A stretch of 64,000 bases of DNA from an uncultured Gammaproteobacteria bacterium (GCA_964348895.1 CAYGEH010000001.1:182610-246609), one strand, 5' to 3'; counted from the first letter of the stretch, positions 13,965 to 63,396 are shown. Notes: a model not told the origin generated them from the letters alone. Made by a program: numbers and translations.

Positions 13965-14084
13965 AAAATTCTTCTCCTTAAATCAAATAGATTTGTTAAT
14001 TTAAGACTCCCTTTTTTCTTAAAAACAGTTTTTCTTGCTAAAATAGCAAAGAAGTAATTAAATCAGTTTTAATTTATTTAATTT

Positions 14085-15705: not shown

Positions 15706-18312
15706 TTAGGGGGCAATTTCCTGCCAAATCTGATGAGAAGAGCGAAAAAATTCAGGGGCATTAAAAAGATGTCGAGGATTAAAAATAAATAACTCGGCTG
15801 GATTAAAAGTATTGCCACCCTCAAGATCTTTATTTAAAGAAAAGGCAGTTCCGGAAAAGAAAACGCCTTCGCCAACAAACTTTGACTCGGCATCATTTTT
15901 AACAGTGGTAATTTGGCCATCAACGAGAAAGACTCCTTGAACTTGAGGAGTGGTTGAAGCAAGATTCATGGTGCCAACATCAATCGTCAAATCTCCGCTA
16001 ACAATCACCGCCAAGAAACCACTTGGCCCAACAGTAATTTGGTCATTGATATTTAGATCGCCAGCCACAAAAATAATTTTTTTGACATCTCCAATTGCCC
16101 AACCATTAATATTCATCATTCCTCCATCTCCCGAAGAATAAACCACAATATTTCTGTCAAGTGAAACTGGGTTTGTTAGAATATTTTCTTCTCGAAAGGC
16201 TATTTCCTCGTTTGCTTCGTTAACGTCTAGAAGAGAAATAAAGTGAGAATAGTGATAGCGATTTCTTAGCGCACTTAGGCTTCCCCTGATCTGCCAGTTA
16301 GTGTTTCCTTGAGACACTTGGGCGCCGTTAAAATTATCCTGACTAGTGGGAAGATGACTCCGAGCTGAAACAAGCCCCGATTGTCCCCACACTCCACCTA
16401 AAGAGAAGAATCTGTTCGTAGCAAGCCGAGAGATCCGACTGGCAACATTACCCCCGTGAACATTTCCGCCCTGAGTTTGAAACCAGGGGGCAGGAGGTCT
16501 AACGGTAACAAGAATAGAATCATTGTTGGTGCAGTCACGCCAGGTATCACAAGTAAACCCACTTATGGGAGAAGCTCCCCAAGGACAGGCGGGATTACCA
16601 GTACAAATTTCGTTTAAACTTCTGGCATTACAAATAACATGATATGTGCCTGGTTGTAAAAAGGTATGTGTCACGCAACCATTGTTCGGAGGGGTTATGG
16701 GTTCTATAGGGCGAAGCCTTGTCCAAGAATTTGCGTTGTCAAGGGGAGACTCAGAAAAAGCAGAGAAAATTCCGCCACCAAGGTCGGCATTTTCTGTTGT
16801 AACACAGTATTGGGCTGGTTCACCAGAAACAGCCACCAGATTACCAGTAATAATACAAGTTGGGGGAGGGGTAATATTAAAGGAGCGTAATTCGCTATCA
16901 GTGCAACCATCATTATTACAGGCCCTAACAAACCACCAGTATACACCATTGTCGCGAACAGTTCGAGAAATACTTAAAACATTACTTCTGGTGATCGTGT
17001 CTGAACCGGAATATCGCATTTGATCGCTGTAAATTTCGTCACGAACCAGGGTTTCCTCTCCCCCCACTATTGTTCTTTCTGGCTCTTCCCAGTGAGCAGG
17101 TGTTTTGCTTTCAGCCTGGGCACGAGTTAGGTTTTTTACCCGACTAACAAAAAGCCCATATCTTCTAGTGTTAAGCGATATACCATAGCCTCCCCTGGCA
17201 CACTGATACCCCCAACAAAATCTATCGTTATACCAAATATATCTACCCGAACTACAACCATAATGTCTTTGATCGACCCTGTCACAAGTGGGTTCTCCCC
17301 CTTGAAATTTCCACCAAGAAAAATCAAGAGACCCGCCAGTACTAATCCTTGTTCCTTCGGCGGGAAGGTTTAAAGAAGGTCTAGCTGGAGCGCAAGAACC
17401 ACAACCAAGATCCCACCCTACATTAAAACAGGGAGTACAATTACCATGTGGAAACATTCCCCATCTTAACCTCTCACAGGGACCAGCCCCACACCCACCA
17501 TACCCCCAACACTCCCGATAACCAGTAGGACCGCAAGTTGAACCAGAATCAGAGGTACCACCGGGTGGCGTTGGCATAACAATTGGAATTTCTCCGCCGG
17601 TTGTTCCGCAAGGATTCACCGTCCACGAAAACCCATCAAAAATACCTAGGCAAAGATCGTTGCTACAAGAGGGGCCAGGCGAACGAAAATCACCCCAACG
17701 AACAACCGCAACATTTGTCCCAGAACAACCCCCGTTCCCAGTACAAGACCCCCTTACTCCACTCAGTCTAGCTCCAGCTACAATACTACCGCTCACCTGA
17801 CAACATGTTTTGTACCAACCACCAGAAGCACAACCAGTGTCGTTACAAATACCAGCGCAAATACTTTCTCCTGCTGGCTGAGAACCGACACAAGGACCAC
17901 AGCGATCAGCCGCCGAACAATTTTGCTGTTGCCACTCCCAAGCACAAACAACACCTATGATTCCACCAGTAACCGAATAAATATGACGGTCGACAACACA
18001 TTGGGCGCTGTGTGCATAGGTCCAAGTCTGCCAACCGTTGGGACAAGAAACCCCTGGTCGACAGCAAACATTGTTTGGTTGAGAAGAAGAACAAAGCGGA
18101 GTTGAACAAACAACACCAAGAGCACAATCTTGGTTTGCTTCCGGGACGGAACAACACTCATAGTCAAGAACTTCGCAAATTCCGTTATTACAACCTCTGT
18201 ATAGTTGACAACCTGTTTGAGAAAAAAGATCTTTTGGTGAAAACAAAAATAATCCCCCTGTTAACAGTAATAAAAAAAATAGAACCAGTCTTTTTTTCAT
18301 TTTGCTTGTCAA
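15706..18312 (-). CDS. Large secreted Cys/Gly/Trp-rich protein (868 aa) with a central Fn3/PKD-like region and a C-terminal beta-rich domain; unknown function
   Basis: Signal peptide MTSKMKKRLVLFFLLLLTGGLFLF. More than 60 Cys in the first ~500 aa (CxxC, CGxC, GCGxGxC patterns). Fn3-like strand NGVYWWFVRACNNDGCTDS. Locally elevated GC. Start codon abuts the upstream ORF stop. Confidence 0.6.
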   Translation of the reverse strand: MTSKMKKRLVLFFLLLLTGGLFLFSPKDLFSQTGCQLYRGCNNGICEVLDYECCSVPEANQDCALGVVCSTPLCSSSQPNNVCCRPGVSCPNGWQTWTYAHSAQCVVDRHIYSVTGGIIGVVCAWEWQQQNCSAADRCGPCVGSQPAGESICAGICNDTGCASGGWYKTCCQVSGSIVAGARLSGVRGSCTGNGGCSGTNVAVVRWGDFRSPGPSCSNDLCLGIFDGFSWTVNPCGTTGGEIPIVMPTPPGGTSDSGSTCGPTGYRECWGYGGCGAGPCERLRWGMFPHGNCTPCFNVGWDLGCGSCAPARPSLNLPAEGTRISTGGSLDFSWWKFQGGEPTCDRVDQRHYGCSSGRYIWYNDRFCWGYQCARGGYGISLNTRRYGLFVSRVKNLTRAQAESKTPAHWEEPERTIVGGEETLVRDEIYSDQMRYSGSDTITRSNVLSISRTVRDNGVYWWFVRACNNDGCTDSELRSFNITPPPTCIITGNLVAVSGEPAQYCVTTENADLGGGIFSAFSESPLDNANSWTRLRPIEPITPPNNGCVTHTFLQPGTYHVICNARSLNEICTGNPACPWGASPISGFTCDTWRDCTNNDSILVTVRPPAPWFQTQGGNVHGGNVASRISRLATNRFFSLGGVWGQSGLVSARSHLPTSQDNFNGAQVSQGNTNWQIRGSLSALRNRYHYSHFISLLDVNEANEEIAFREENILTNPVSLDRNIVVYSSGDGGMMNINGWAIGDVKKIIFVAGDLNINDQITVGPSGFLAVIVSGDLTIDVGTMNLASTTPQVQGVFLVDGQITTVKNDAESKFVGEGVFFSGTAFSLNKDLEGGNTFNPAELFIFNPRHLFNAPEFFRSSHQIWQEIAP

Positions 18313-18846
18313 CTAATTGGCTAAAAAATCTTTCGGTTCAAGTTTTATAATTTCCTTTTCAGCATCAAAAACAGAAACTATCAGATTAACTCCAAAGTCG
18401 GCAATTTCTCCTGATTGAGTCTTTAAAATTTCTTCTTCTGCCCAAACATTAACCAGCCTCTGTTCATCTCTTCCTGTTAAAACATAATTAACACTAAATC
18501 CGCTATTAAAATCGGTTAAAATTAAACTTGGAAATTGCCCTCCACTGGTCATATTAATATAGTTCATTCTACTGTTTTTAACCTGACCAGCAAAAACTGC
18601 CAAAATTGGTGTGTTTTCTGGAACTTGGTAGCCAATTCCCAAATAGCTTCCGTCAACTTCAACTATTTTTCCCCTGGAACAATATTCTTGAGGTACTGGA
18701 CAATGAAGAAACTTTTTTATTGTGCTTCTTTCAATAAAAAGCTCGTCTTCTCGAGCGGGACGAAAAATAAAAAAATAATAAGAGGCTAAAAAACCAATAG
18801 TAGCCAACAACAAAATAAGGAAAAACAAAACTAAAGGCCGTTTCAC
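18313..18846 (-). CDS. Small N-terminally membrane-anchored protein, unknown function
   Basis: 177 aa; TM helix LVLFFLILLLATIGFLASYYFFIF; translationally coupled to the downstream Cys-rich protein gene. Confidence 0.5.
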   Translation of the reverse strand: MKRPLVLFFLILLLATIGFLASYYFFIFRPAREDELFIERSTIKKFLHCPVPQEYCSRGKIVEVDGSYLGIGYQVPENTPILAVFAGQVKNSRMNYINMTSGGQFPSLILTDFNSGFSVNYVLTGRDEQRLVNVWAEEEILKTQSGEIADFGVNLIVSVFDAEKEIIKLEPKDFLAN

Positions 18847-18890
18847 AGCTTTTTTAGTTTAGGAAAAAAAAACCTCTAAGTCAAGAGCTG

Positions 18891-20816
18891 TTATTGGTCT
18901 CTATCTAAACTAAAAACCAAAGCCTGATCAACTCTCAAAATACGCTCTAGAGAAAAACTATGTGGTCCCATCAGACTTGATGCCGTAAAAATAATCTGAC
19001 TTTCACTGTTTATGGAAATTCCTCTGCTAAACAAGCCTTCCTTTTCGATTTCAGTAAAGATAATTTCGTCAAAACTAACCTGCCTTGCTCCCCAATCTCC
19101 TAGATTAATCTCTTGCGCTGACTTAATTAAAAAACTTAAGCCATGATTAGCCCCCCTCAAATGCTTTTCTAGCAAATTCTCTGGTGTATCTATTGATATC
19201 GCGTAAAAACCTCTCTGTGGAGACCAAATAGCTCGAGTTTGCTCGATAAATGGAGAGCGAAATTTCGCCGTTGACGGTAACCCCCCAATTTCAACCCAAT
19301 AAAATGTTTTGTCAGAGCCTTCTTCCCATATTTTTATTCTTTCTCCTCTTGGGTCAAAATTAAAAGCCATCCGCCACTGGTCTTTTTCGATTGCCTCCGA
19401 CGTGTTAGTTTTTTCTAAAAGTTTTCTTCTAACTTCACTAGCCAAAGCTAACCCCTGTCCAGACGAAGTCCCAGTTTCATCATCAAATTCGAACAAGTAA
19501 CCAGCATATTCTCCTTCTTGCAGGTTGTAGGGGTTGTCCTTCTCTGCTCGGTAAATAACCTTCTCCTCTTCCCAACCAAGAATTAACCCCTCTACGCTTG
19601 GAGCCTTGGCCAATAGCTCTTCTGGAGAAAAAATTCTTTCCCATTTCCATTCGCCTTGTTCTATGTTGTATTTTGCTTGAGCAAGGTTTTTAAAATCTCC
19701 TGTTTCCTGATCCTGACTTTTTAAGATAAAGCTGGTTCTACCCTCTTCGTCGACTGTTTCCTCAAAATCCCAAACCGCAGGCATTTCCTCAAAGTGGGGG
19801 ACTATTGGGTTTTTGATCATCTCGCCATTTATTTGATCAACAAAAACCATTCCTACTTCTTTTCTAATTTCAGCAATTAGAGCTTCTCCTTCAATTTGGT
19901 TGAGGTTTAGTCGTGTTTCTTTCTGACCCTCGTTAAGAACGATCTGCTGGCTTTGAGAGTCAAATTGATAGCCATTGGCGACTAAAAGATTTTCCAGTGA
20001 AAGCGCATTTCTGTTTTCTGGATCAGCTGGAAAATGAGTGGGCAAAAGAGCTAAATAATGGCGAGGAACGCCACTTTCCCCTGAAGTCCGAAGATAGTCA
20101 GTAAAGGCAACTAAGACAGAGTTTAATTCTCCTCCGGGGGTATTTTTGTCAATGGTGATTTCCGTTGACGGCTTGGGTTCATTAAGCAAGCCCACCACGG
20201 TCATTTGGGTTCCTGAACGCAATAAAAAGCTTCGAGGAGTAATCCATTCTTTGAGCTCTGAAGCTTCTTGTTCTGCTTCAGAAGGAACCTCACTTAGAGT
20301 TAGTCGAGCCAAGGACAGTTCGGCCAATTGGGGAAAAATTACTTCTCCGCCTTGTTTTCCAGGAGCGAAAAATCCTTCCTCGCCTCGATAAGCTCCCAGA
20401 GAAACCAAATATTTTAATGGGTCAACTGATTTTTCTGGTAGGTGGGTAAATTTAATTGTTTCTCCCCAAGACTTGCTAACATAGTCTAAACCAAATTCAA
20501 CTAGTGATGTTTCCGCTTGGCCTTCTCCCACTCTTTCTCCTCCGCCGACGCCAACAAAAGCATTTCTAAGATATTCTTCAGTGATAGTTGTCCCTAAGAT
20601 TCCAATTACTTCTCTGGTAGGAGCTGGCTCAATGGTTGGAATCTTGGTAGGGGTAGGTTCTGGTGAAGCAATTACAGAGGTCTTGTCGACCTGTTCTGGC
20701 TGTCGTCCGCAACTGGAAGAAAGGGCGCCAACCACAATGGTCCCAGCAGCTCCCAAAAGGAACTCTCTTCTGGTCATTACTGGCCCTCTATTTAATACTT
20801 CCTTAGAGTTGGTCAT
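18891..20816 (-). CDS. Large secreted lipoprotein with twin-arginine (Tat) signal peptide, unknown function
   Basis: MTRREFLLGAAGTIVVGALSSSCGRQ combines the Tat motif RREFLL with a lipobox LSSSC; 641 aa; first gene of the three-gene operon. Confidence 0.55.
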   Translation of the reverse strand: MTNSKEVLNRGPVMTRREFLLGAAGTIVVGALSSSCGRQPEQVDKTSVIASPEPTPTKIPTIEPAPTREVIGILGTTITEEYLRNAFVGVGGGERVGEGQAETSLVEFGLDYVSKSWGETIKFTHLPEKSVDPLKYLVSLGAYRGEEGFFAPGKQGGEVIFPQLAELSLARLTLSEVPSEAEQEASELKEWITPRSFLLRSGTQMTVVGLLNEPKPSTEITIDKNTPGGELNSVLVAFTDYLRTSGESGVPRHYLALLPTHFPADPENRNALSLENLLVANGYQFDSQSQQIVLNEGQKETRLNLNQIEGEALIAEIRKEVGMVFVDQINGEMIKNPIVPHFEEMPAVWDFEETVDEEGRTSFILKSQDQETGDFKNLAQAKYNIEQGEWKWERIFSPEELLAKAPSVEGLILGWEEEKVIYRAEKDNPYNLQEGEYAGYLFEFDDETGTSSGQGLALASEVRRKLLEKTNTSEAIEKDQWRMAFNFDPRGERIKIWEEGSDKTFYWVEIGGLPSTAKFRSPFIEQTRAIWSPQRGFYAISIDTPENLLEKHLRGANHGLSFLIKSAQEINLGDWGARQVSFDEIIFTEIEKEGLFSRGISINSESQIIFTASSLMGPHSFSLERILRVDQALVFSLDRDQ

Positions 20817-35353: not shown

Positions 35354-35382
35354 TTGACAATCATTAAAAAACAACCTATACT
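35354..35382 (+). promoter_or_regulatory. Sigma70-like promoter TTGACA-17-TATACT for the pilN-like operon
   Basis: TTGACA at 35354-35359 and TATACT at 35377-35382, about 28 nt upstream of the GTG start. Confidence 0.5.
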
Positions 35383-35409
35383 GATTTTAAGATTAGTTTT
35401 TGGCTTGCC

Positions 35410-35973
35410 GTGTCTAAAATAAAAGGGGAAATTTCACTACTACCAAAGGAAAAAGATGAAAACCGACTCGAACAAGCCTCTGACTGGATAATAACTACTG
35501 GTCGGTGGGTTGTTGTTTTTACCCTTTTCTTTGTTTTACTGGCCTTTCTGTCTCGTTTTTGGCTAGACCAAAGAATTGCCGACCTCTACGCCCAAAGCGC
35601 GCAAAGAATTGCTATCGTTGAAGCCTCTAAAGACTTTGAGGAAGATTTTAGATTACTTCAAAATCAGTTTGATAGAATCCAAGCTTTAGATCAAGAAAAG
35701 CCAAATCAGGCCGAACAGGTTAAAAAAATAATTGCAATTCTGCCGGAAAGAATTAACCTGACCTCAATTAACATTGTTGACGATCAAGTTGATTTCACTA
35801 TTATTTCCCAAAACGAGCTTGATTTAAATCATTTTTTTCAAAATTTAATTCTTTGTCCATACCTTGATCAAATTAATATTGCTAACATTTCCACCAAAAC
35901 ATTTGGTATCGAAACAGAAATTTCTGTTAACGCTAGATTTGTCGATGTTATTAGCGAGACCAACAAACAATGA
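35410..35973 (+). CDS. PilN-like type IV pilus assembly protein
   Basis: N-terminal ISLLPKEK...R (INLLP-type PilN signature), a single TM helix and a periplasmic domain; 187 aa; likely GTG start. Confidence 0.55.
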   Translation: MSKIKGEISLLPKEKDENRLEQASDWIITTGRWVVVFTLFFVLLAFLSRFWLDQRIADLYAQSAQRIAIVEASKDFEEDFRLLQNQFDRIQALDQEKPNQAEQVKKIIAILPERINLTSINIVDDQVDFTIISQNELDLNHFFQNLILCPYLDQINIANISTKTFGIETEISVNARFVDVISETNKQ

Positions 35974-36611
35974 TTAATCTACCCAAGCTTTCTTATCGCA
36001 ATGCTTTGTCTCAAATACCAATTCCAGTGCGAGAAAAAAGTCGCAAATGGGCTTCAACAATAGCAACTCTCTTTTTGACTACTTTCTTTATTGCTTTTGC
36101 CATCAGACCCACTGTGATTACTATTGTTGAACTTTTGGCCGAAATTAGAGCTCGAGAGGAATTAAACCAAAAGCTTCAAGAAAAAATAGAGCAAATTATG
36201 GTGGCTCAAAAACTATATAACCAAATATATCCTCGACTTTATCTTCTCGACCAAGCTTTACCGACAAATCCTAAATTTGCCTATTTCTCGCAAACTCTAG
36301 AAAGCAATCGAATAGAGGCTAATTTAAACTTGGAAACTCTTAATTATTCTTCAATAGTTTTAACTGAAATGGCCGACACTAAAACAGAAGAAAAAAATCA
36401 AGAATTTGTCTTTACCACGGGTCTTTCTGGTCGCTATCACGACCTAAAGAGTTTTCTAGAAAATCTTTTTAACCAAAGAAGAATTATTTATATTAATAAT
36501 CTAAAGATTGACCAAAAGCAGAATAATCAACAAGGCGAGCAGGCCCAGGCTGACATCCTCCCCTTAACCATTACCATTGACGGCGAAGCATTTTATTTGG
36601 GCAGTGAATAA
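35970..36611 (+). CDS. PilO-like type IV pilus assembly protein
   Basis: Short cytoplasmic N-terminus, TM helix, coiled coil (ELNQKLQEKIEQ) then a periplasmic domain; overlaps the pilN-like gene by 4 nt. Confidence 0.5.
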   Translation: MINLPKLSYRNALSQIPIPVREKSRKWASTIATLFLTTFFIAFAIRPTVITIVELLAEIRAREELNQKLQEKIEQIMVAQKLYNQIYPRLYLLDQALPTNPKFAYFSQTLESNRIEANLNLETLNYSSIVLTEMADTKTEEKNQEFVFTTGLSGRYHDLKSFLENLFNQRRIIYINNLKIDQKQNNQQGEQAQADILPLTITIDGEAFYLGSE

Positions 36612-37035
36612 CAACATCGAACAAACAAACAATAAAAAGTCGAACAAAAACAACGATTGGTTAATAATCGCCATTTTTGTTTTACTTTGCGCTCTGGTTT
36701 GGGTGGCTACAAGCTCTTATCACAGCTTTGTTGATAAAAAAGAGGTGGTAATTAGACAGGAGCTACTTGTTCCTCTTCAGCCAAAAATTGATCCATCTTT
36801 ATTTGATACTTTAGAGGCTCGGATTCACCCCGACGAAGAGAAGTTAATAGAAATTCTTTCTGAAAACAGTCCCAACATAATTGGTTTGGACGAAGAAACA
36901 GAAGAAACTGAAATGGACCCCATTTCGCCTCGACCAATAGAAACCAGAGAAACAGTCGACCCGCTAGACGGATCAGCTCCTCCGCCAACAACAAATGAAA
37001 TAAATCAAGAAGAGTTGCCGGCTCTAGCTCCATAA
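36577..37035 (+). CDS. Small membrane-anchored acidic protein, unknown function (PilP-position)
   Basis: TM helix LIIAIFVLLCALVWVA; acidic, Pro-rich C-terminus; 152 aa. Confidence 0.4.
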   Translation: MTAKHFIWAVNNNIEQTNNKKSNKNNDWLIIAIFVLLCALVWVATSSYHSFVDKKEVVIRQELLVPLQPKIDPSLFDTLEARIHPDEEKLIEILSENSPNIIGLDEETEETEMDPISPRPIETRETVDPLDGSAPPPTTNEINQEELPALAP

Positions 37036-37067
37036 AAGAAAGAGGCATAATTTCCCTAAAAAAAGCA

Positions 37068-38525
37068 ATGAGGCTTAAACCCGCCAAAACCATTCCCAGT
37101 ATTATTGGCCTTTTGCTTTTAACCGTTCTTGTCTTTGGCGGTGTTTATCTTACTCAAAGACTAGGCAGAACCACCACTCAAATTGCTGCCTCGCGCCAAC
37201 CCTTATCAGTCAGGGTGGCCAATATTACTGATCGAGCCGCTGTCGTTTACTGGCTAACAGAAGAAGAAACAGAGGGAAGTATTAAGCTTAACGATAAAAT
37301 TTATCTTGATAATCGAGACAGGGTTTCTTCTCAGGCAAAAAAACGCTTTACTCATTATGTCGCCATTGATGATCTTCTTCCAGGCGAAACCTATCATTTT
37401 GCCATTATCAGCCAAGGGCAAATTCAACAAAAAGACAGCTTTCAGTTTACCACTGCCCAAGCCTTGATTGGTCCTCCTGCAGAAGTTGCCGATTTGGCTT
37501 TTGGTATTATTTTGGACAATCAACAAAATCAGCCCTTGGCTGACACTCTTGTTACTCTTTCTCTGCCTGGAGCCACTAATCTGGCTAGCCTAACTGACGA
37601 CAATGGTTTTTGGTCTATTCCCTTGAGCACTGCTTATCAGAAAGATTTATCTAGGCCAATTAGTTATGATCGAGAAAAAGAGGTTCTTGAAATCCTAGTT
37701 GAATCTCGTCCTGGATTAAGCTCAACCGTTATCACTAATACTGGTAATGATCATCCAGTTCCTCCGATAATCATTGGAAAGTCATATGATTTTTCCCAAA
37801 ATCCTCCCACCCCAAGACAGCAACCAGAAGATTTTGATTGGACTAACCCTCTAGAAACAGTTGAAGAAATAAACAACTCTTCTTTTTTTCTTCCCCAAGA
37901 GCAAATTGACCCAAAAGAAGCTCAAGCTGTAATCAATATCAACGATCCCCAAGAGGGAGAAACTGTTTTTACCGCTAAACCAGAATTTTCTGGACGAGGT
38001 CCGGCTAATCAAACTATTAAAGTTACTTTAGAATCGCCTAAAAAGTTTGAGGAGGAGATTGTTGTTTCTGCCTTTGGCTCGTGGCAATGGAGTCCACCAG
38101 AACACCTTACCCCCGGAAGACACACTCTCACTGTTGAGTATCACGACGAAAACAACATTCTTCATGTTGTCAGTAGAACCTTTATAGTTCAAGCCTCTAG
38201 TATTTCTCCTTCGCCAACACCAATAGTGCCTCTACCAACCATCCCCCCTCAAGTTACCCCAACTCCTACTCCAGTTCGAACTACTCCAACCCCTACTCCA
38301 GTTCGCACTACCCCAACTCCTACTCCAGTTCGCACTACCCCAACTCCTACTCCAGTTCGAACTACTCCAACCCCTACCCCTTTGCCAACAATAACACCAA
38401 TAATTAAAGAAGCCACTGCTCCAGCCGAAATAGTTTCTGGCAACTTGACGCCCTTGGTTATTCTTGCTATTCTGGGCTTAGGCTTAATTTATTTTGCTTT
38501 TGTTGTTCATCAAAAAAAACACTAA
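37068..38525 (+). CDS. Surface protein with Fn3-like domain, 4x PTPTPVRTT repeat linker and C-terminal TM anchor with basic tail
   Basis: Signal anchor; Fn3-like VANITDRAAVVYW...YHFAI; tandem 27-nt repeats; C-terminus TPLVILAILGLGLIYFAFVVHQKKH. Confidence 0.55.
   Translation: MRLKPAKTIPSIIGLLLLTVLVFGGVYLTQRLGRTTTQIAASRQPLSVRVANITDRAAVVYWLTEEETEGSIKLNDKIYLDNRDRVSSQAKKRFTHYVAIDDLLPGETYHFAIISQGQIQQKDSFQFTTAQALIGPPAEVADLAFGIILDNQQNQPLADTLVTLSLPGATNLASLTDDNGFWSIPLSTAYQKDLSRPISYDREKEVLEILVESRPGLSSTVITNTGNDHPVPPIIIGKSYDFSQNPPTPRQQPEDFDWTNPLETVEEINNSSFFLPQEQIDPKEAQAVININDPQEGETVFTAKPEFSGRGPANQTIKVTLESPKKFEEEIVVSAFGSWQWSPPEHLTPGRHTLTVEYHDENNILHVVSRTFIVQASSISPSPTPIVPLPTIPPQVTPTPTPVRTTPTPTPVRTTPTPTPVRTTPTPTPVRTTPTPTPLPTITPIIKEATAPAEIVSGNLTPLVILAILGLGLIYFAFVVHQKKH
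38259..38366 (+). repeat. Perfect 27-bp tandem repeat, 4 copies, encoding PTPTPVRTT
   Basis: ccaactcctactccagttcgaactact repeated four times with only synonymous variation. Confidence 0.8.
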
Positions 38526-39928
38526 TGCTTCCCGCTTCAAATAAACCATCACCGCCACCTCTTCCTCCAGAAAACTACAAGAATCAAATTGCCGTTAACT
38601 TTAGCTCTATTGACAATAATCAAGTCAAAACCCAACCCTCTCAAGGCTCCAAACAAAAAACAAAAAAAATATTTATAATCATCGCTGCTATTTTTTTGGC
38701 ACTAATAGCGCTAATGGGAGCTCTTTTTTTCATTCGAGAAAGACAAGACATCAGAGAAGAAGCAGCAACAACTGGACGCTTAATTTGTATGCCTGTTGAC
38801 AACAATGGAAATATCACTAATGAAAAATATCAACATGATCGAATGTTGGTTAAAAACGAAACAAATAGAGACATCCAAATCAAAATTCAAACTAATCTTT
38901 GTCCATATCAAGGACAAAATCCTCAAATCGGATATCGCTGCGATGACTATGTTGGCGCTTTCCCTTATATTGTTCGGGCGGGAACTCAGGTAATTTTACC
39001 CAATCCCGATACCGAATCATGGTTGTCACAGGGCTGGGTTGGTTGTCAAAAAATTGGTCAAATGGACATTCAAAAAGATAAAGATCACTACATTCACATT
39101 GGTGTTGACCCCAACACTATTCCAGACTGCTTTAACACTGTTGACAATCGCGTTTGGGAAGGGGGAATTGCTTTTACTATCAAGGCTAATTCTGCCTCCT
39201 GTTGTCCAAAAATGGAAGTAGCCGTCTCCCCTAATAATCCTAGACCAGGACAAGAGGTTGTTGTCAGAGCCTCTAGTCCATCTCCCCTAGTTTGTGCTGA
39301 ACTAGTTAATTTTTCTGGCTTGGCCGGAAAACCAACTTGGATTGGCATGGACGGAAATTATAACTGGTCCTGGAGGGCAACCGCTGGAAACACCCCCGGA
39401 CAATACAGTCTTACCTTTAGGGGCAATACTAGGGATTCTGGTCAAGGAGTCTGTCCGGGTCGGGCGATCGGTGACTGGTGTCAAGTAACTGGCAACTTTG
39501 GTGTTGGCGTTGCCCCAACTCCAACCCCAACTCCAACTCCCACTCCGACAATCTTTCCGACTCCCACTCCAACCCCCACCCCAACACCTCCCCAATACGA
39601 CTACAACTGCCATACTATTAATGTTTACGATGCTAATCGAAATTTAATTAATCGTAACGACTTAAAAAACCTAAAAGCAGGAGACTTAATTTACATCGGA
39701 GTGGTCGCCAACAGTGGCCATCCAATCCACCAAATTAATAAAGCCAGGATTCGTGTTAATCGTAATTATTGGCTGGCTCAAGATGAAACTAGCGAAAAAT
39801 TAACTACCAGCGCTAATCATTTAACTGAATTTGTTAAAAGCTACATTATTCCTGAAGGATTATTGAATTTTAAGATTGAGGCAGAGGTTCACCTTAACGC
39901 TCCCAGTCCAGTCGGAGGCTGGCGTTAG
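38525..39928 (+). CDS. Membrane-anchored extracellular Cys-containing protein with a (TP)n linker and a C-terminal beta-rich domain
   Basis: Pro-rich cytoplasmic N-terminus (PSPPPLPPENY), TM helix, Cys-containing ectodomain, [12 protein letters not shown] linker; its ATG overlaps the upstream stop (TAATG). Confidence 0.5.
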   Translation: MLPASNKPSPPPLPPENYKNQIAVNFSSIDNNQVKTQPSQGSKQKTKKIFIIIAAIFLALIALMGALFFIRERQDIREEAATTGRLICMPVDNNGNITNEKYQHDRMLVKNETNRDIQIKIQTNLCPYQGQNPQIGYRCDDYVGAFPYIVRAGTQVILPNPDTESWLSQGWVGCQKIGQMDIQKDKDHYIHIGVDPNTIPDCFNTVDNRVWEGGIAFTIKANSASCCPKMEVAVSPNNPRPGQEVVVRASSPSPLVCAELVNFSGLAGKPTWIGMDGNYNWSWRATAGNTPGQYSLTFRGNTRDSGQGVCPGRAIGDWCQVTGNFGVGVAPTPTPTPTPTPTIFPTPTPTPTPTPPQYDYNCHTINVYDANRNLINRNDLKNLKAGDLIYIGVVANSGHPIHQINKARIRVNRNYWLAQDETSEKLTTSANHLTEFVKSYIIPEGLLNFKIEAEVHLNAPSPVGGWR

Positions 39929-39940
39929 TTAAAAATTATT

Positions 39941-40414
39941 ATGACATCTAAAAAAACCCTAAAGACCATTGTTATTATTGTTGCCAGCCTCTTGTTGTTA
40001 GGACTAACTGTTTTCTTGGCTAGTCAAATTTATCAAACTCGCCAAGAACGTCTGGCTCCCACTGAACCAAGGGCGGTCAGCCCCACTTGCACTCTGGCTT
40101 TTACTATTTTGCCACCAACCCCAACCCCCACTCCGACACCTCCTCCAATCGTAACGCCTACTCCTACTCCAACCCCAACTCCCACTCCGACACCCTCTCC
40201 GACTCCGACTCCAACCCCAACCCCCACTCCAACACCTCCTCCAATCGTGACGCCTACTCCTACTCTTACCCCAATCCCAACACCCTCCCCAATCGTAACA
40301 CCTCCTCCTACTCCACCAACCACTCTGCCAGAAGCTGGAAGCATTTTGCCAACCATTGGAGTAGCCTTGGGCGGATTATTTTTGGGAATACTGGGACTCC
40401 TCCTCGTTTTTTAA
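39941..40414 (+). CDS. Small Thr/Pro-rich surface protein with C-terminal LPEAG + hydrophobic segment (sortase-signal-like)
   Basis: N-terminal signal anchor, about 90 aa of TP repeats, then [29 protein letters not shown] at the C-terminus. Confidence 0.5.
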
Positions 40415-40427
40415 AAAATTTTAAAGG

Positions 40428-41657
40428 GTGTTATCTGGAAAAAAAATTGCTATTGTTGGCGCTGGAATCAGTGGTTTATACTTGGCTTATCGTTTAAGCT
40501 CTAAGAACAAAGTTATTGTTTTTGAAAAAAATAACCAAGTCGGGGGATTAGCCTCAACTTTTCAATCCGACAACTGGAGTTGGCCGCTAGAAAGCTTTTA
40601 TCATCATTTTTTCACTTCTGATAAAAAATTAATAAGTCTTTTAAAAGAATTATCTTTATCGTTTTTTTGGCAAAAACCAACAACCGCTATTTGGCAAAAC
40701 GAAAAAGTTAATGATTTTTCTTCACCCCAAGATTTGTTTACTTTTCCCGAAATAAGTTTTTTTGACAAGGTTCGCCTGGGAGGAACACTGGGTTTATTAA
40801 AAATAATTCCTAATTATCGCCTAATTCCTAAAAAAGAAGCCAGTAAATTGTTCCCCTTGCTTATGGGTAAAACATCCTATCAAAAAATTTGGGAGCCGTT
40901 GATGCGAGGAAAGTTTGGTTCTTTTCAAAACAGGATTCCCGCCGTTTGGCTTTGGGCTAGAATAAAAAAAAGATCAACCTCTCTTGGTTATCCCAAGGGA
41001 GGGTTTAGTCAAATAACCAATTGCTTGGTTCAAAAAATTAAAACTCAAGGCGGTCAAATAAAAACTAATTTTCCAATCACTAGGGCTACTCAATTGGCTG
41101 GTTTTGATAAAATCATTTTTACTACCCCAAAAATAACTTTCCAACAAATTTTTAAAGAAAAGCCTCTTTGTCAAGTTGCTTACCTGGCAAGCTTAAACTT
41201 AATTATTTCAAGTCCCCAGCCACTTTTTGAAGACAGTCTGTATTGGCTCAATATTACTGACCCCTCTTTTCCTTTCGTGGCAATAATTAATCACTCTGGC
41301 TTGGTTTCTTCTAAAAAATACAATAACAGTTTTCCAATTTATCTTGGCGGATACTATCAACAAAACGATCCCATTATGAAAGAATCAGCTCAAGAAGTTT
41401 TTACTAAATTCAATCCGTTTTTAAAAAGAATTAATCCTAAATTTAATCCCCAAAACTGTCAGTTCTTTCTAAACAAAAACTTATGGGCTCAACCAATTGC
41501 TGATCTTAATCAGCCCCAACCTCATCCTTCGTTTAAAACGAAATATCAAAACGTTTTCTTGGTTAACATGGAACAAATTTATCCTTGGGACCGGGGAGTT
41601 AATTATGCTCTTGATTTGGCCGACAAGTTTTTGCACTCTGTTGCTCTTGTCTCTTAG
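40428..41657 (+). CDS. FAD-dependent oxidoreductase (amine-oxidase / UDP-galactopyranose-mutase-like Rossmann family)
   Basis: IAIVGAGISGL dinucleotide-binding motif followed by VGGLAST; 409 aa. Confidence 0.55.
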   Translation: MLSGKKIAIVGAGISGLYLAYRLSSKNKVIVFEKNNQVGGLASTFQSDNWSWPLESFYHHFFTSDKKLISLLKELSLSFFWQKPTTAIWQNEKVNDFSSPQDLFTFPEISFFDKVRLGGTLGLLKIIPNYRLIPKKEASKLFPLLMGKTSYQKIWEPLMRGKFGSFQNRIPAVWLWARIKKRSTSLGYPKGGFSQITNCLVQKIKTQGGQIKTNFPITRATQLAGFDKIIFTTPKITFQQIFKEKPLCQVAYLASLNLIISSPQPLFEDSLYWLNITDPSFPFVAIINHSGLVSSKKYNNSFPIYLGGYYQQNDPIMKESAQEVFTKFNPFLKRINPKFNPQNCQFFLNKNLWAQPIADLNQPQPHPSFKTKYQNVFLVNMEQIYPWDRGVNYALDLADKFLHSVALVS

Positions 41658-41676
41658 TTGATTTAAAATATGACTA

Positions 41677-42588
41677 ATGCTAAGGGCAAAAACTATTCTT
41701 GCTTCTTTAAGGCCGTATCAGTGGATTAAAAATCTTGCCATTTACGCCGCTCTTCTTTTTACTGGCTATCTCTTCGATGAAAACCACTTTTTGATTACCA
41801 CCGCAGGATTTGTCATTCTTTGTTTGCTCTCTTCTGCTTCTTATTTACTAAATGACATCGTTGATGTTGCTCGAGATCGTCTTCATCCTATTAAGAAAAA
41901 TCGACCTATTGCCACAGGGGAATTATCTGTTAATACCGCTTTTCAAGTTTCCGTGGGCTTGTTTATTTTTGGCCTAACAGCCGCCTTTCTGCTTAGTCGA
42001 GGATTTTTTATCATTTCACTAGTCTTTGTCGTTCTTCATTTAATTTATTCTTTTTATCTCAAAAAGCATCCCCCTCTAGATATTTTGGCAATCGCTGCCT
42101 CTTTTGTTTTAAGAACTCTGGCTGGAACAACCCTAAGCGGGTTTCACATTCCTATCTGGTTAGTCTTCTCGGTTATCTTTCTTTCTCTTTTTATTGCCAG
42201 CGGCAAGAGACGGTCCGAATTATTAAAAAAAGGACAAGGAACTCGACCCGCCCTAAAAGAATATCGTCGAGAATTACTAAATTCTTATTTATCTATTTTT
42301 GGCACCGCCACTCTTATTTCTTACGCTATGTTTACTTTTACCGCTTCTCCCCCCGAGTTTAGCGATAAGCTCTTAAGATTTCTGCTATATAACTATCCCC
42401 AAACGGTTGACAGAAAGTGGTTAACGCTCTCTGTTCCTTTTGTTATTATTGGTCTAATGCGTTATGCCCAATTAGTTTTTTTGGCTCAAGAGGGGGAAGC
42501 TCCAGAGAAAACGATTAAAGACACCTATTTAATTTTAAGTGTTTTGGGTTGGGGAGCGAGTATTTTTGCCATCATTTATGTCTTCTAG
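41677..42588 (+). CDS. UbiA-family polyprenyl-phosphate transferase (decaprenyl-phosphate phosphoribosyltransferase-like)
   Basis: NDIVDVARDRLHPIKKNRP (NDxxDxxxD) motif, about 8 TM helices; 303 aa. Confidence 0.65.
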   Translation: MLRAKTILASLRPYQWIKNLAIYAALLFTGYLFDENHFLITTAGFVILCLLSSASYLLNDIVDVARDRLHPIKKNRPIATGELSVNTAFQVSVGLFIFGLTAAFLLSRGFFIISLVFVVLHLIYSFYLKKHPPLDILAIAASFVLRTLAGTTLSGFHIPIWLVFSVIFLSLFIASGKRRSELLKKGQGTRPALKEYRRELLNSYLSIFGTATLISYAMFTFTASPPEFSDKLLRFLLYNYPQTVDRKWLTLSVPFVIIGLMRYAQLVFLAQEGEAPEKTIKDTYLILSVLGWGASIFAIIYVF

Positions 42589-44200
42589 GCAGGAAAAGAT
42601 TCTTCTCTTGGCTATTCTTGTTTTTTCCGCTCTGTTACGATTTGGTGGCCTGAATTGGGGCGACGGTTATTTCTTTCACCCTGATGAAAACAACATGGCT
42701 CGGGCAATTCTTAATTTAAGTCAAGGGAATAGTCCTGGTCTTTACGCTTACGGGCAATATCCCCTTTTTATCGCTCTTTTTTCTGCCAGAATTTATAATC
42801 TTTTTTCCTTTGTCCATCAACAACACCAGCTAACCTTTAGTCAGGCTGTTTTCTTCTTACGTTTTTGGTCAGCCTTAACTGGAGTCGCGGTTGTTTGGCT
42901 GGTTTATCTTTTGGGTCGAAATTTAATCGAAGCAAGGAGTGGTTTGATTGCTGCTGCCACCACCGCCTTTTTACCTGGTTTAATTCAAGCCAGCCACTTT
43001 GGCACCACCGAATCATGGTTAACTCTTTTTTATTTAACAATGGTTTATTTCTCTTTTCTCTTTTATCAAGAAAATAAAAGAGTCTATCTATTTAGCATTG
43101 GTTTATTGCTTGGCTTAGCTTTGGCAACTAAGATTTCGGCCGCTATTTTTATTTTTGTTCCTTTGACGGCAATAGGGCTTGTTGTTAAAAATGACAAAAA
43201 ATCTATTAAAGATAATTTAATTGGGTTTTTTCTTCTTATTATTATTGCTCTTATCGTAATGCTGCTTTTTTCTCCTTTTTTGGTTATTAATTACCAGCAA
43301 AGCCTTGCCGTCTTAAGGTACGAAATAGCCATTGCCAGGGGTAGTTTACCAATTTTTTACACTCGGCAATTTTTTAATACTCAACCATTCTTGTTCCAAA
43401 TTAAAAAGGTTTTGCCCTTTTTACTGGGTTGGCCGATTCTAGTTTTAGCTCCATTGGCAATAATTTCAATTATTAAAATTAGCAAAAGAAGAAACAAAAA
43501 AAATTATTTTTTTAGCTGGTTAATTGTTCTGCTTCCCAGTTTAATTTTTTTTATTTATCAAGGACAGCTGTTTGTTAAATGGACGCGCTTTATGGTTCCA
43601 ATTCTTCCAGTCTTTTCCCTGCTTTTTGCCCAAACAATAACTAGCTTTTATAAACCACTACAATATATTTTAATAGTTTCTTCTTTTCTTCCTGGCTTAT
43701 TTTTATTTGATTTAGTTTATGGACAACCTGATGTTCGTCAACAGTTTTCCTCTTGGGCTAAAAAAAATCTTCCCGAAAACTCTATTGTTCTTTTTGAAGA
43801 AAATAATGTTGTTGATCTTCCTCTAGGAAAACACTCTTTTCAAACAATTAGTTTTAACTTTTATCGTCTAGAAGAAGAGGACTTTCAAAACCAACTCAGC
43901 CAATTACTGGAATTAAGCGATTATCTTCTTATCCCCAGTCGTAGAGTTTTTGCTAACCATTCTTCAGCTAAATTTCCCAATACCGCTAATTTTTATCAAA
44001 AACTTTTTTCCGAACAGTTAGGTTTTCTTGAGTTAAAAAAATTTAACCCCACCAGCCGCCTATGGCTGGCCAATCTTTACTATGCCGAGGCCGAAAAAAG
44101 GGCAGAAGAAACCTGGACTGTCTTTGATCACCCCACTATCAGAATTTATCAAAAGAAAAAACCATATTCTGCCGAAGAATATCGGCAAATTTTATTTTAA
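42539..44200 (+). CDS. GT-C glycosyltransferase, ArnT/PMT-like (COG1807-type)
   Basis: Polytopic membrane protein with an FFHPDENN (DE) first-loop motif; 553 aa. Confidence 0.55.
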   Translation: MFWVGERVFLPSFMSSRQEKILLLAILVFSALLRFGGLNWGDGYFFHPDENNMARAILNLSQGNSPGLYAYGQYPLFIALFSARIYNLFSFVHQQHQLTFSQAVFFLRFWSALTGVAVVWLVYLLGRNLIEARSGLIAAATTAFLPGLIQASHFGTTESWLTLFYLTMVYFSFLFYQENKRVYLFSIGLLLGLALATKISAAIFIFVPLTAIGLVVKNDKKSIKDNLIGFFLLIIIALIVMLLFSPFLVINYQQSLAVLRYEIAIARGSLPIFYTRQFFNTQPFLFQIKKVLPFLLGWPILVLAPLAIISIIKISKRRNKKNYFFSWLIVLLPSLIFFIYQGQLFVKWTRFMVPILPVFSLLFAQTITSFYKPLQYILIVSSFLPGLFLFDLVYGQPDVRQQFSSWAKKNLPENSIVLFEENNVVDLPLGKHSFQTISFNFYRLEEEDFQNQLSQLLELSDYLLIPSRRVFANHSSAKFPNTANFYQKLFSEQLGFLELKKFNPTSRLWLANLYYAEAEKRAEETWTVFDHPTIRIYQKKKPYSAEEYRQILF

Positions 44201-44248
44201 AGAAGTAGAACCAAAAAAAACCTTGTTGAATGACTTACAACGCTTTTA

Positions 44249-44833
44249 TCAGGCAATAGGTGTTTGGGTAAGCTTTTTCAAGGCTTCTTCTATGGAAGAA
44301 ATCACCACAATATCTTTTCGTTTGTTTTCTGCTTTTTGCCTCCAACCAGGAATCAACCAGAAAAGTTTTGCTTTAGTTGAAACAGCTAATTTTTCCAATA
44401 CTTCTAGGTCATCGTCAATAAAAACATCAAGCCCTTCTGTGTTTATCGCCAAAGATTTAAACTGAATCGGATCTTGGTCTTCTTTATTAATAACAATTTG
44501 GCTAAATAAGTTGGTTAAATTGTTGCACTCCAACCAGTCTAGGGTTAATTGTTTTAAAAAGCTAAATCTGGCAGTAATTAAAAAAAGCTGAAAATCCCCA
44601 AGATTAGACCAGGTCTTGATTTTATTCTTATCAGAAAAAGATATTCTTCTTAAATAATTAATCGTTTTTAAAACTAGCTTCTCCCACCTATTTTTAGGAT
44701 AGAAATGGCTCATTCCTCCATTCGCAATTAATCCACTTTCTTTTTGTTTCCTTATCTTAAACCAAAAATAATCCAAACAGTGTCGTGCTAAAACTCCGTC
44801 TAAATCAAAACCAACTTTTATCGTTGCTGTCAT
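44249..44833 (-). CDS. HAD-superfamily hydrolase (nucleotidase/phosphatase-like)
   Basis: N-terminal GFDLDGVLA (DxDGV HAD motif I); 194 aa. Confidence 0.5.
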   Translation of the reverse strand: MTATIKVGFDLDGVLARHCLDYFWFKIRKQKESGLIANGGMSHFYPKNRWEKLVLKTINYLRRISFSDKNKIKTWSNLGDFQLFLITARFSFLKQLTLDWLECNNLTNLFSQIVINKEDQDPIQFKSLAINTEGLDVFIDDDLEVLEKLAVSTKAKLFWLIPGWRQKAENKRKDIVVISSIEEALKKLTQTPIA

Positions 44834-44905
44834 TTTCTGGTAGTCAGTTTAACATACCAACAGCACCTTTTTTAATCAAGCCAAATCAATTACAATAAAG
44901 CCTAA

Positions 44906-46942
44906 ATGGAAATTGTTCACGAGTTGGGTTTGGTTTTCTATTGGTGGTTTATTTTATTTTCTTTGGGAATAATTGTTCTTCCCTTGACTCAGTTGCTCTT
45001 TCGAGGTTTGTTTTCTTCTGGTTACTTGTTTTCTAAGGTTGTTGCCCTAGTTCTGTTTTCCTGGCCAGTTTTTCTCTTGGCTCACTTAAGAATTCTTCCC
45101 TTTACCCAAACAAGCATTTTGATATTTTTGGGATTAATGGGGGTGGGGCTTTTGTTCTTCTTTAAAAAAAGGCCCTTTCTTGACCGAAAAATGATTAGAC
45201 AAATTTTTTGGCAAGAAATTGGTTTTTTACTTGCTCTTTTACTCTGGTCATATGTTAGGTCTTTAAAGCCAGACATTTCCTGTTTAGAGAAGTTTATGAA
45301 TTTTGGCTTTATGAGAGTCCTAATCAATAGTCGTTTTTTGCCTCCAATCGATATGTGGTTTGCTGGAGAAACAATCAATTATTATTATTATGGTCATTTC
45401 CTTGCTGCTTTCCTAACTAAACTCTCCGGAATAGTCCCAATAATTACCTACAACCTAATGATTGCCACTCTTTTTGCTCTAACCACCAGTCAGGTTTTTT
45501 CTTTAGTTTCAAGTCTTGTCAGTAAAATCAGCAAAAACAAGAGAACCGTTATTGTCGCTGGTCTATTGGGAGCACTACTAATCGGTTTTGCCAGCAATCT
45601 TCACACTCCATATTATGTTTTGAAGGACGGAATCCAAAGCTATTGGTATCCTAACGCCACTCGCTATATTGGTTATAATCCCCCCACCGACGATAAAACC
45701 ATCCACGAGTTTCCAGCCTACTCTTTTGTTGTGGCTGACCTTCATGGTCATGTTTCTTCTCTGCCCTTGGTTATTTTATTTATTGGCTTGAATCTATCTT
45801 TAATTTTGGAGGGGAAAAGTAATTTTTGGCTAAAGGTAGCTTTCTTGGGTTTTCTTTTGGGAATAATTTACATGATTAATGCTTGGGATTTGCCAATTTA
45901 CCTTTTGTTTTTTGGCATTTGCTTGTTAATTAACCTTCTGGCTAGTGTCAAAAAATTAAAGACTTTTTCTCAGTTTATTTCTAAGCTACCAATTATAATT
46001 AAGCCGATAATGGTCGTAATCGGCCTTTTTCTTTTAGCCTCTCTCCCCTTCAATTTAAATTTTCAACCTATGACTCAGGGGATTGGAATAGTAAAAAGTC
46101 AAACACCTTTTTCCCAACTTCTAGTTCTTTGGGGTGCGTTTGGTTTTTGGGCTATAAGTTTCTTGTTTGTCTTTAAATTTATTCCTTCACGAAAACCAAC
46201 TGACTTTTTCGTTTTGGGGTTAATCACAACTGCTCTAATTCTTATCGGATTACCAGAAATAATTTATGTTAAAGACATTTATATTGACACCTTTCATCGA
46301 GCCAACACTATGTTTAAGCTTACCTTTCAAGCTTATTTAATGCTTACGGTCGCCTCTGTTTATATTATAGTTCGAACCTATCAAAGCTTAGGCTGGCTAT
46401 TAAAAAGATTATTTTTATTCATTTGTTTCGTTCTGATTGGCAGTCTTCTTATTTATCCCTTTTTTTCAATTCCTGGCTTTTACGGAAAGCCAAGGCTTGT
46501 TAAAACCCAAACCTTGTCGGGATTAGGCTTTCTGGCTCAAAGATACCCAGAAGACTATCAAGCAATTATTTGGATCGAAGAAAATCTTGTTCAAACGGCA
46601 GTTGTTTTAGAGGCGGCTGGGGATAGTTATACTGATTTTGGTCGCGTTTCTGTTTTCACTGGTCGCCCCACCATTCAAGGCTGGTTTGTTCATCAATGGC
46701 TTTGGCGAGGAAACTATGAAGAACCAACTAGAAGAGCTCTTCATGTTGAGCAAATTTACCAATCAGCCAATATCGATGTTGCTCAAAGCTTATTACAGAA
46801 ATACGCTGTTGACTATCTTTTCTTTGGTCAATTGGAGCGGGAAAAGTATCCCCAAGCAACTCTTGAAAGGCTAAGTCTTCTGGGAGAACCAGTTTTTAGA
46901 GCGGGAAGGACAGTGGTTTTTAGAATAAACAGCAGTCTTTAA
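44906..46942 (+). CDS. Large polytopic membrane protein of the YYY-motif (DUF2298 / Chlor_Arch_YYY) family, putative GT-C-like glycosyltransferase
   Basis: 678 aa, more than 14 TM helices; INYYYYGHF motif characteristic of the Chloroflexi/Archaea YYY family. Confidence 0.5.
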   Translation: MEIVHELGLVFYWWFILFSLGIIVLPLTQLLFRGLFSSGYLFSKVVALVLFSWPVFLLAHLRILPFTQTSILIFLGLMGVGLLFFFKKRPFLDRKMIRQIFWQEIGFLLALLLWSYVRSLKPDISCLEKFMNFGFMRVLINSRFLPPIDMWFAGETINYYYYGHFLAAFLTKLSGIVPIITYNLMIATLFALTTSQVFSLVSSLVSKISKNKRTVIVAGLLGALLIGFASNLHTPYYVLKDGIQSYWYPNATRYIGYNPPTDDKTIHEFPAYSFVVADLHGHVSSLPLVILFIGLNLSLILEGKSNFWLKVAFLGFLLGIIYMINAWDLPIYLLFFGICLLINLLASVKKLKTFSQFISKLPIIIKPIMVVIGLFLLASLPFNLNFQPMTQGIGIVKSQTPFSQLLVLWGAFGFWAISFLFVFKFIPSRKPTDFFVLGLITTALILIGLPEIIYVKDIYIDTFHRANTMFKLTFQAYLMLTVASVYIIVRTYQSLGWLLKRLFLFICFVLIGSLLIYPFFSIPGFYGKPRLVKTQTLSGLGFLAQRYPEDYQAIIWIEENLVQTAVVLEAAGDSYTDFGRVSVFTGRPTIQGWFVHQWLWRGNYEEPTRRALHVEQIYQSANIDVAQSLLQKYAVDYLFFGQLEREKYPQATLERLSLLGEPVFRAGRTVVFRINSSL

Positions 46943-63340: not shown

Positions 63341-63396
63341 TAGTATTTAATAAAACAGATTGTAATTTTCTTGTCAAGAGGTATTTTTCTTTAAAA

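Follow-up and report, generated by a model that had tools for sequence, protein, structure and literature searches.

An orphan pilN–pilO pair followed by predicted sortase-type surface protein genes in a conserved envelope operon of Microgenomatia

Genes and features of the operon

In this work, a run of six plus strand genes, named g1 to g6 (35410–40414), was analyzed in a 64 kb stretch of DNA deposited as part of an uncultured Gammaproteobacteria genome (GCA_964348895.1, CAYGEH010000001.1:182610-246609). This whole stretch is referred to as the window, and positions are given in its coordinates. The first two genes encode homologues of the type IV pilus (T4P) proteins PilN and PilO, and they are followed by genes for a small bitopic protein (g3), an immunoglobulin (Ig)-like stalk with a predicted sortase-type tail (g4), and two variable partners with Thr/Pro-rich tracts (g5 and g6). 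By homology and gene order, the six genes form a conserved envelope operon of the class Microgenomatia in the Candidate Phyla Radiation (CPR/Patescibacteria). The operon does not amount to a new system, and it is no surface fibre; what appears to be new is the class-wide coupling of an orphan pilN–pilO pair to g3, to the sortase-type Ig stalk, and to the variable Thr/Pro partners, among murJ, rpsT, and glycosylation genes. No description of this operon, nor of a fixed orphan pilN–pilO coupling to g3–g6, was found in the literature.

Relatives were collected by a scan of GTDB, with one genome per species, using a PilN alignment, which matched 159 species. The trustworthy titles among these matches were Shapirobacteria, Woesebacteria, Blackburnbacteria, and Microgenomates, and many of the others were obvious mislabels. 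Hidden Markov models for g1–g6 and their neighbours, built in this analysis, were mapped onto the best 80 of the 159 loci (about 20 kb each), and precomputed Pfam assignments were used on further related loci. The DNA of the window belongs to a Candidatus Shapirobacteria genome: metagenome contigs, the longest of 279 kb, carry copies identical to g2, and the relatives of g2 were named Shapirobacteria or Microgenomates by their sources.

The operon is preceded by a sigma-70-type promoter, TTGACA–17 nt–TATACT (35354–35382, plus strand; score 11/12), as had been noticed in an earlier reading of the window made from the sequence alone (hereafter the sequence-only reading). It is the top-scoring site within 34–42 kb and lies 27 nt upstream of the GTG start codon of g1. 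The same hexamers with the same spacing, exact in each case, are found 10–32 nt upstream of g1 in nine Shapirobacteria relatives with diverged flanks. Promoter-like sites in the region showed no excess (17 against 16.4 expected from shuffling), and the promoter is taken as real because of its score, position, and conservation, not because of an excess of sites. Downstream of it, g1 and g2 overlap by 4 nt (ATGA) and g4 and g5 by 1 nt (TAATG); with GTG 36604 as the start of g3, g2 and g3 share 8 nt. Gaps of 32 and 12 nt separate g3 from g4 and g5 from g6, respectively. The head-to-tail overlap described for all six genes thus applies to three of the five junctions, and the g3/g4 and g5/g6 junctions are gapped. 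From 35410 to 44200, nine plus strand genes stand in a row, so the same-strand run goes past the end of g6 at 40414.

The product of g1 (35410–35973, plus strand; 187 aa, GTG start) matched the Pfam PilN model PF05137 with 27.1 bits (cut-off 22.8), and this model was matched by 36 of 39 diverse members of the g1 family (best E 6.8e-14). By comparing the g1 family profile with all PDB sequences, the top match was PilN of Myxococcus xanthus (3jc8_N, E 1.8e-5), and the next had E > 0.5. The protein has a single transmembrane (TM) segment at residues 34–52, followed directly by an invariant SRFWLD sequence and by the PilN domain at the C-terminus. Ahead of the TM segment, on the cytoplasmic side, lies the ISLLP motif (residues 8–12, 35431–35445), so both features given earlier for this protein were recovered. 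As in known PilM–PilN complexes, we take the ISLLP-type peptide to be the PilM-binding element. The pattern [ILVM][NS]LLP occurs in 59 of 77 g1 orthologues, with near variants in the rest, at an overall identity of only 25–30%; judging from this conservation, the PilM-binding-type peptide is under clear purifying selection. A HMMER search of 1.84 billion proteins gave 657 relatives of g1 at E ≤ 1e-3, and since all of them are about 180–190 aa long, none is fused to PilM.

The product of g2 (35970–36611, plus strand; 213 aa), which overlaps g1, matched the Pfam PilO model PF04350 with 24.8 bits (cut-off 22) and the GspM-type model T2SSM_b with 22.0 bits (cut-off 21.7). PilO was matched by 26 of 39 diverse g2 family members (best E 1.7e-11). 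The g2 family profile found M. xanthus PilO as its top PDB match (3jc8_O, E 1e-7), with PilO of Pseudomonas aeruginosa (2rjz, 5uvr) among the weak matches. The protein is bitopic, with one TM region at about residues 27–57, and its C-terminal domain gave a weak profile–profile match to that of g1 (E 5e-4, probability 30%). Some orthologues of g2 are already labelled PilO by NCBI and JGI. With both Pfam models above cut-off and PilN and PilO as the respective top PDB matches, g1 and g2 are, by profile similarity, genuine PilN and PilO homologues, as their hallmarks had suggested to the sequence-only reading.

The third gene, g3 (36604–37035, plus strand), encodes 143 aa with a single TM segment when read from GTG 36604; TTG 36577 is an alternative start. 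With 27 Asp and Glu against 11 Lys and Arg residues, it is indeed the small acidic membrane protein that had been noted behind the PilN/PilO pair. Its conserved part runs from a basic N-terminus through the TM segment and an invariant Tyr to a segment of some 25 residues with the pattern LLxPLxPxLDxxxLxxIExR. Many orthologues stop after this segment, so the acidic tail is lineage-specific. Among the 80 mapped loci, g3 lies between pilO and g4 in 68. No Pfam match was found among 32 members of the family, nor any PDB sequence match. PilP and GspC were considered as identities for g3 and excluded, given these 32 members without a Pfam or PDB match and conservation limited to the TM segment and about 25 residues.

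The product of g4 (37068–38525, plus strand; 485 aa) starts with a TM segment or signal and contains three beta-sandwich domains, which are FN3-like (about residues 45–130), CarboxypepD_reg-like (143–241), and Big_13 (290–374; Pfam, 30.9 bits). A Thr/Pro linker follows at residues 379–458 and is disordered in the AlphaFold model (predicted local distance difference test, pLDDT, 79), which in Foldseek matched adhesin and FN3 stalks. The protein ends in a sorting-signal-like tail, IVSGNLTP, a TM segment, and HQKKH (38430–38522). When about 70 orthologue C-termini were aligned, the pattern in most was [VI]Px[ST]G-x-LTP followed by a TM segment and a basic tail.

Within the g4 linker lies a tandem repeat of 27 bp in 4.6 copies (38255–38377, plus strand; Tandem Repeats Finder period 27, 91% matches). 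It had been called a perfect four-fold repeat, and this is true of the encoded peptide, PTPTPVRTT repeated four times; the DNA copies are 91% identical. The expectation that its length could vary is supported by alleles of four, two, and one copies in near-identical sequences. One PTPTPVRTT unit instead of four is present in assemblies that are otherwise identical over an aligned stretch of 300 bp, which amounts to an exact 81-bp indel. A near-identical strain (P0020) has two units, and its g5 is one TP pair shorter. These alleles support slippage-type length variation of the repeat, with the collapse of repeats in short-read assembly as an alternative source that could mimic it. No other record of the 485-aa, four-copy protein was found, and an exact 29-nt pattern of the flank had no match in JGI metagenomes. 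Moreover, the repeat is missing from g4 orthologues at 60–70% identity, so it is a recent expansion in a generally variable linker.

The g5 product (38525–39928, plus strand; 467 aa) is a type II membrane protein that belongs to no Pfam family. Its TM segment (residues 49–67) is followed by Cys-rich beta domains (86–327), a (TP)n linker (39515–39592), and, at the C-terminus, a beta domain of about 100 residues (362–457) that is conserved. The Cys-rich middle domain is swapped for other Cys-rich modules in loci L008, L009, L014, and L016. In the structural model (pLDDT 80.5), the proline-rich cytoplasmic N-terminus is disordered. Within residues 1–47 (38525–38665), PSPPPLPP precedes the TM segment, and relatives carry PPPPPP runs there; this N-terminus may serve to bind a partner in the cytoplasm.

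The last gene, g6 (39941–40414, plus strand; 157 aa), is conserved at both ends. A TM segment or signal at the N-terminus is followed by a conserved LAPTEPxAVSxxCTLxF segment, then by a Thr/Pro-rich tract of 76 residues (40103–40330) and by LPEAG (40325–40339), after which a hydrophobic end of 24 residues closes the protein. In 57 g6 orthologues, LPx[AS]G and the hydrophobic C-terminus are conserved. Relatives of g6 carry inserted globular or Cys-rich domains. On identical contigs, public gene calls place an antisense open reading frame at 40033–40356 (minus strand), with a Gly/Val-rich product of 107 aa, instead of g6. The plus strand g6 is the coding one, because its N-terminal segment and LPxAG tail are conserved in the 57 orthologues; public annotation therefore misses g6 by calling the antisense of its Thr/Pro tract. 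Two extra genes, at 13468–14448 of locus L016 and 12710–13873 of locus L042, combine a g5-like N-terminus with Cys-rich domains and a g6-type [LV]Px[AT]G tail, which indicates domain shuffling among the variable members of the module.

The products of g4, g5, and g6 are all predicted to be exported by a Sec-type route, and Thr/Pro-rich tracts were found in all three. The C-terminal anchors attributed to these three surface proteins hold for g4 and g6, whose tails are predicted LPXTG-like sorting signals, and not for g5, in which a C-terminal hydrophobic tail or anchor was looked for and none was found. A sortase gene of the PF04203 family lies outside the operon, on the same 279 kb contig (L011 21201–21680), at a distance of about 10–11 kb from the window start; in Microgenomates, sortases are reported to be near-ubiquitous (PMC6744442). 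This gene is preceded by that of a 741-aa protein without a clear family (the pair spans L011 18856–21680, about 8–11 kb beyond the window start). Furthermore, a motif scan and the reading of the N-termini of g3–g6 revealed no class III signal peptide, so they were excluded as pilins. Foldseek searches with the g4 and g5 models returned only generic Ig/FN3/MG arrays, among them adhesin stalks, contactins, complement, and an S-layer protein. The surface fibre envisaged by the sequence-only reading accordingly finds no support, g3–g6 not being pilins and g4 and g5 being ordinary Ig-like strings.

Conservation and genomic neighbourhood

The order g1-g2-g3-g4 was observed in essentially every one of the mapped loci that is long enough to show this core, and g5, g6, or both are present in most of them. 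At each of the three junctions of the core (g1/g2, g2/g3, and g3/g4), the median spacing is −4 nt. The core always lies beside murJ and rpsT, and it stays unchanged when the orientation of murJ and rpsT differs among lineages. This class-wide gene order and the overlapping junctions support a putative functional link between PilNO and the envelope proteins, and to this extent they back the PilNO-scaffolded module that had been proposed.

The pair is an orphan with respect to the rest of the pilus machinery. None of pilM, pilB, pilC, pilT, pilD, a secretin, or a prepilin was found in the window, and no pilus genes were found within 10 kb beyond either of its ends. Likewise, the 96 loci retrieved contained no PilB/PilT-type ATPase motif, prepilin, pilM, pilC, or pilD. 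In having no pilM neighbour in the window, its flanks, or the 80 mapped loci, g1 differs from a canonical pilN. The absence of an adjacent pilM, secretin, ATPase, and prepilin that had been pointed out therefore holds for the window and its flanks and, as regards pilM, the ATPase, and the prepilin, for the related loci. In CPR bacteria generally, pilM, pilN, pilO, pilB, pilC, and pilT are reported to co-localise in numerous genomes (PMC6744442), and in Saccharibacteria pilMNO lie inside both pilus loci (PMC12206443). The closed genome of the Microgenomatia member Ch65 (order UBA1400) has a single T4P locus, for which PilA, minor pilins, PilD, PilB, PilT, PilC, and PilM are listed, and PilN and PilO are not (PMC7143001). 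As annotated in that paper, and for a different order, this locus fits with PilN and PilO being supplied from elsewhere.

Downstream of the operon, a FAD oxidoreductase gene (40428–41657, plus strand; PRK07233 family, 334 bits) follows g6 after a 13-nt gap. After a further 19 nt comes a UbiA-type prenyl-phosphate phosphoribosyltransferase-like gene (41677–42588, plus strand; Pfam and NCBIfam matches), whose best match is decaprenyl-phosphate phosphoribosyltransferase with 195 bits, under the cut-off of 207. It is overlapped by a gene for a GT-C glycosyltransferase of the PMT_2/Agl23 type (42539 or 42578 to 44200, plus strand). The same-strand stretch downstream of the operon, 40428–46942, also encodes a chlor_Arch_YYY protein (482 bits), and its genes look like a polyprenyl-phosphate-pentose glycosylation set. 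In most related loci, the module is followed by the same trio of FAD oxidoreductase, UbiA-type, and GT-C genes, by UbiA and two PMT_2 genes, or by PMT and LCP genes.

Elsewhere in the window, several minus strand genes for secreted or membrane proteins were observed. Two genes that overlap each other occupy 59905–61997. One product, of 359 aa, matches Dockerin_1 (28 bits, cut-off 22.9), and the other, a membrane protein of 338 aa, matches Cohesin weakly and under the cut-off (E 0.003); they may be a cohesin–dockerin surface pair in a CPR genome. At 62831–63990 lie genes for two paralogous secreted proteins, of 169 aa and at least 197 aa, that match neither Pfam nor NCBIfam models; directly outside the window come the genes for a 1074-aa protein and a VirB4/TrwB-like ATPase. 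A Cys-rich secreted protein of 868 aa, for which no family was matched either (15706–18312), adjoins two exported proteins without a family (18313–20816). The cumulative GC skew drops almost monotonically over the window (1–64000), and a comparable strand disparity is known from other Microgenomatia genomes (PMC7143001).

Possible roles of the module

We tentatively favour the reading in which g1 and g2 are the PilN and PilO of a pilus, encoded apart from pilM and co-expressed with partners that would span the wall; the link to the pilus is part of what is conjectured. In this mechanism, PilN and PilO would form their usual bitopic heterodimer, and the N-terminal peptide of PilN would clamp a PilM encoded elsewhere, in the locus that carries pilB, pilC, pilT, pilD, and the pilin genes. 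Through this clamp, the motor in the cytoplasm would be connected with the outer side of the membrane, where g3 and those domains of g4 and g5 that lie closest to the membrane would attach to PilNO. The g4 and g6 proteins would then be cut by the sortase of the genome and fixed to peptidoglycan, and their Thr/Pro linkers would span the wall, probably O-glycosylated by the adjacent PMT-type GT-C enzymes, with which the products of the other polyprenyl-phosphate-sugar genes there (FAD oxidoreductase, UbiA-type, and chlor_Arch_YYY) would act. In Actinobacteria, PMT enzymes O-glycosylate such linkers. Where the pilus leaves the cell, these proteins would thus form a collar or guide anchored in the wall, which would take over, in cells without an outer membrane, the role of PilP, PilQ, and TsaP in diderms. 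Changes in the repeat length of the linkers would alter their span or the surface properties.

Several observations weigh against this reading. In all of about 90 loci, the 10 kb around the module are free of pilus genes, and a second pilN/pilO pair beside pilM may exist outside the loci covered. The constant neighbours are murJ, rpsT, chaperone genes, and glycosylation genes, which point to wall biogenesis as much as to pili. Furthermore, g3 does not resemble PilP, the Ig-like arrays of g4 and g5 are generic, and g5 and g6, like adhesins, are not always present and differ in their domains. As to the predicted anchors, the g4 motif in the window is degenerate (IVSG), and g6 is without the basic tail of classical sorting signals.

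A broader proposal, which we regard as possible and rather more doubtful than the pilus collar, is that PilN/PilO, g3, and g4 form the membrane base of an undescribed, Microgenomatia-wide envelope-spanning complex. This could be either the missing wall conduit of CPR T4P, as a monoderm counterpart of PilP/PilQ made of unrelated parts, or a pilus-independent structure on a borrowed PilNO scaffold. Such a complex would consist of sortase-anchored, glycosylated Ig-like proteins.

Slightly less probable again, and unlikely on balance, is that PilNO no longer serves pili at all and that, with g3 and g4, it organises another envelope process. This could be, for example, the placing or anchoring of sortase substrates, the attachment of surface glycoproteins or an S-layer, or wall growth near MurJ. 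Such a co-opted role would agree with a module that always adjoins murJ and rpsT, sits among PMT, UbiA, LCP, and glycosyltransferase genes, and is never close to pilus genes, and it has a precedent in the PilMNO homologues of flagellar cages in Campylobacterota (PMC10823254). However, the PilM-binding peptide is under clear purifying selection, CPR genomes carry PilM within their T4P loci (PMC6744442, PMC7143001), and no second PilM-like gene accompanies the module.

An explanation that seems to us somewhat less likely than co-option is that co-transcription is all that joins the genes: pilNO would serve the pilus, and g3–g6 would be ordinary sortase-anchored, glycosylated surface proteins that share the promoter through genome compactness. 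The behaviour of the distal genes would suit this, as g5 and g6 are variable, exchange domains, and are duplicated in some cases and missing in others, and the linker lengths are polymorphic and the folds those of generic adhesin-like Ig arrays. On the other hand, in more than 60 species and at only 25–30% identity, pilO, g3, and g4 succeed one another with overlaps of 4 nt, even though the surrounding genes are rearranged and murJ/rpsT flip, and such coupling would be unusual for unrelated genes.

We consider it improbable that the machinery works in the manner of type II secretion, i.e., that the pilus apparatus, including PilN/PilO, would act as a piston moving the Sec-exported g4–g6 proteins across the wall. 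Mutants of Clostridium perfringens in pilM, pilN, pilO, pilB, pilC, and pilD release less BsaC and BsaA (PMC11580942), and g4–g6 are predicted Sec-type exported proteins encoded directly behind pilNO. But this single analogy is the basis of the idea, the sequences give no sign of substrate specificity, and sortase substrates normally need no such help. Finally, it is highly improbable that g1 and g2 are misread division proteins of the FtsL/DivIC type, which are likewise bitopic: DivIC matched g2 weakly (14.9 bits against a cut-off of 28.9), did not match g1, and gave weak matches in 4 of 39 g2 family members, whereas the PilN and PilO models are above their cut-offs and a separate DivIC gene lies at 57699–58049.

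In the view of the field, CPR/Patescibacteria depend largely on type IV pili for attaching to host cells and feeding on them, and in these bacteria the pilus machine has to be held in the wall and to cross it without an outer membrane and a secretin. With 159 species matched, g3–g6 are concrete candidates for the missing outer part of the pilus, linked to PilN/PilO. If the pair is co-opted instead, the operon would be a second reuse of PilNO as an envelope scaffold, after the flagellar cage of Campylobacterota. In either case, the absence of pilN and pilO from CPR pilus loci does not mean that the genes are missing.

Comparison with known systems

The operon resembles the PilM-PilN-PilO-PilP(-PilQ) systems of M. 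xanthus and P. aeruginosa in PilN/PilO homology, gene order, the overlapping pilN–pilO junction, and the xNLLP-type peptide. As in the PilMNOPQ set of these type IVa pili, a small protein and then larger envelope proteins are encoded at the pilP and pilQ positions. Unlike in that set, pilM is not adjacent, there is no secretin, and g3 has neither a lipobox nor a PilP domain nor any similarity to PilP. Downstream, Ig-like stalks are encoded that have Thr/Pro linkers and predicted anchors of the sortase type, and the neighbours are murJ, rpsT, and glycosylation genes. With the LPXTG proteins of Gram-positive bacteria, g4 and g6 share an N-terminal signal or TM segment, a Pro/Thr spacer, and [LVI]Px[TSA]G followed by a hydrophobic stretch, and g4 also shares the basic tail. 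They differ from these proteins in their non-canonical motifs (LPEAG in g6, IVSG in g4), in the lack of a sortase gene in the operon, and in the fixed pilN–pilO association, which is not known there.

Similarity to the GspL-GspM-GspC part of type II secretion systems is seen in g2, which passes the T2SSM_b cut-off, and in PilN, which corresponds to the periplasmic part of GspL; in these systems, bitopic GspC is the third partner that links the platform to the outer component. However, g1 is without the fused cytoplasmic domain of GspL, and GspC HR and PDZ domains, GspD, GspE, and GspF are absent. The PilMNO-derived flagellar scaffolds of Campylobacterota are comparable in that PilN and PilO were recruited away from pilus loci (PMC10823254). 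They differ in that CPR bacteria have no flagella and no motor genes lie nearby, and the partners here are predicted wall-anchored Ig-like proteins.

Gram-positive T4P systems, such as those of C. perfringens and Streptococcus sanguinis, are similar in having a single membrane and no secretin and in keeping PilN/PilO. C. perfringens moreover offers a precedent, as its PilMNO influences how Sec-exported surface proteins get through the wall (PMC11580942). The difference lies in the surroundings, since pilMNO there form part of pilus loci, with pilin genes behind them, whereas here pilNO stand alone and are followed by genes for non-pilin proteins of the predicted sortase type.

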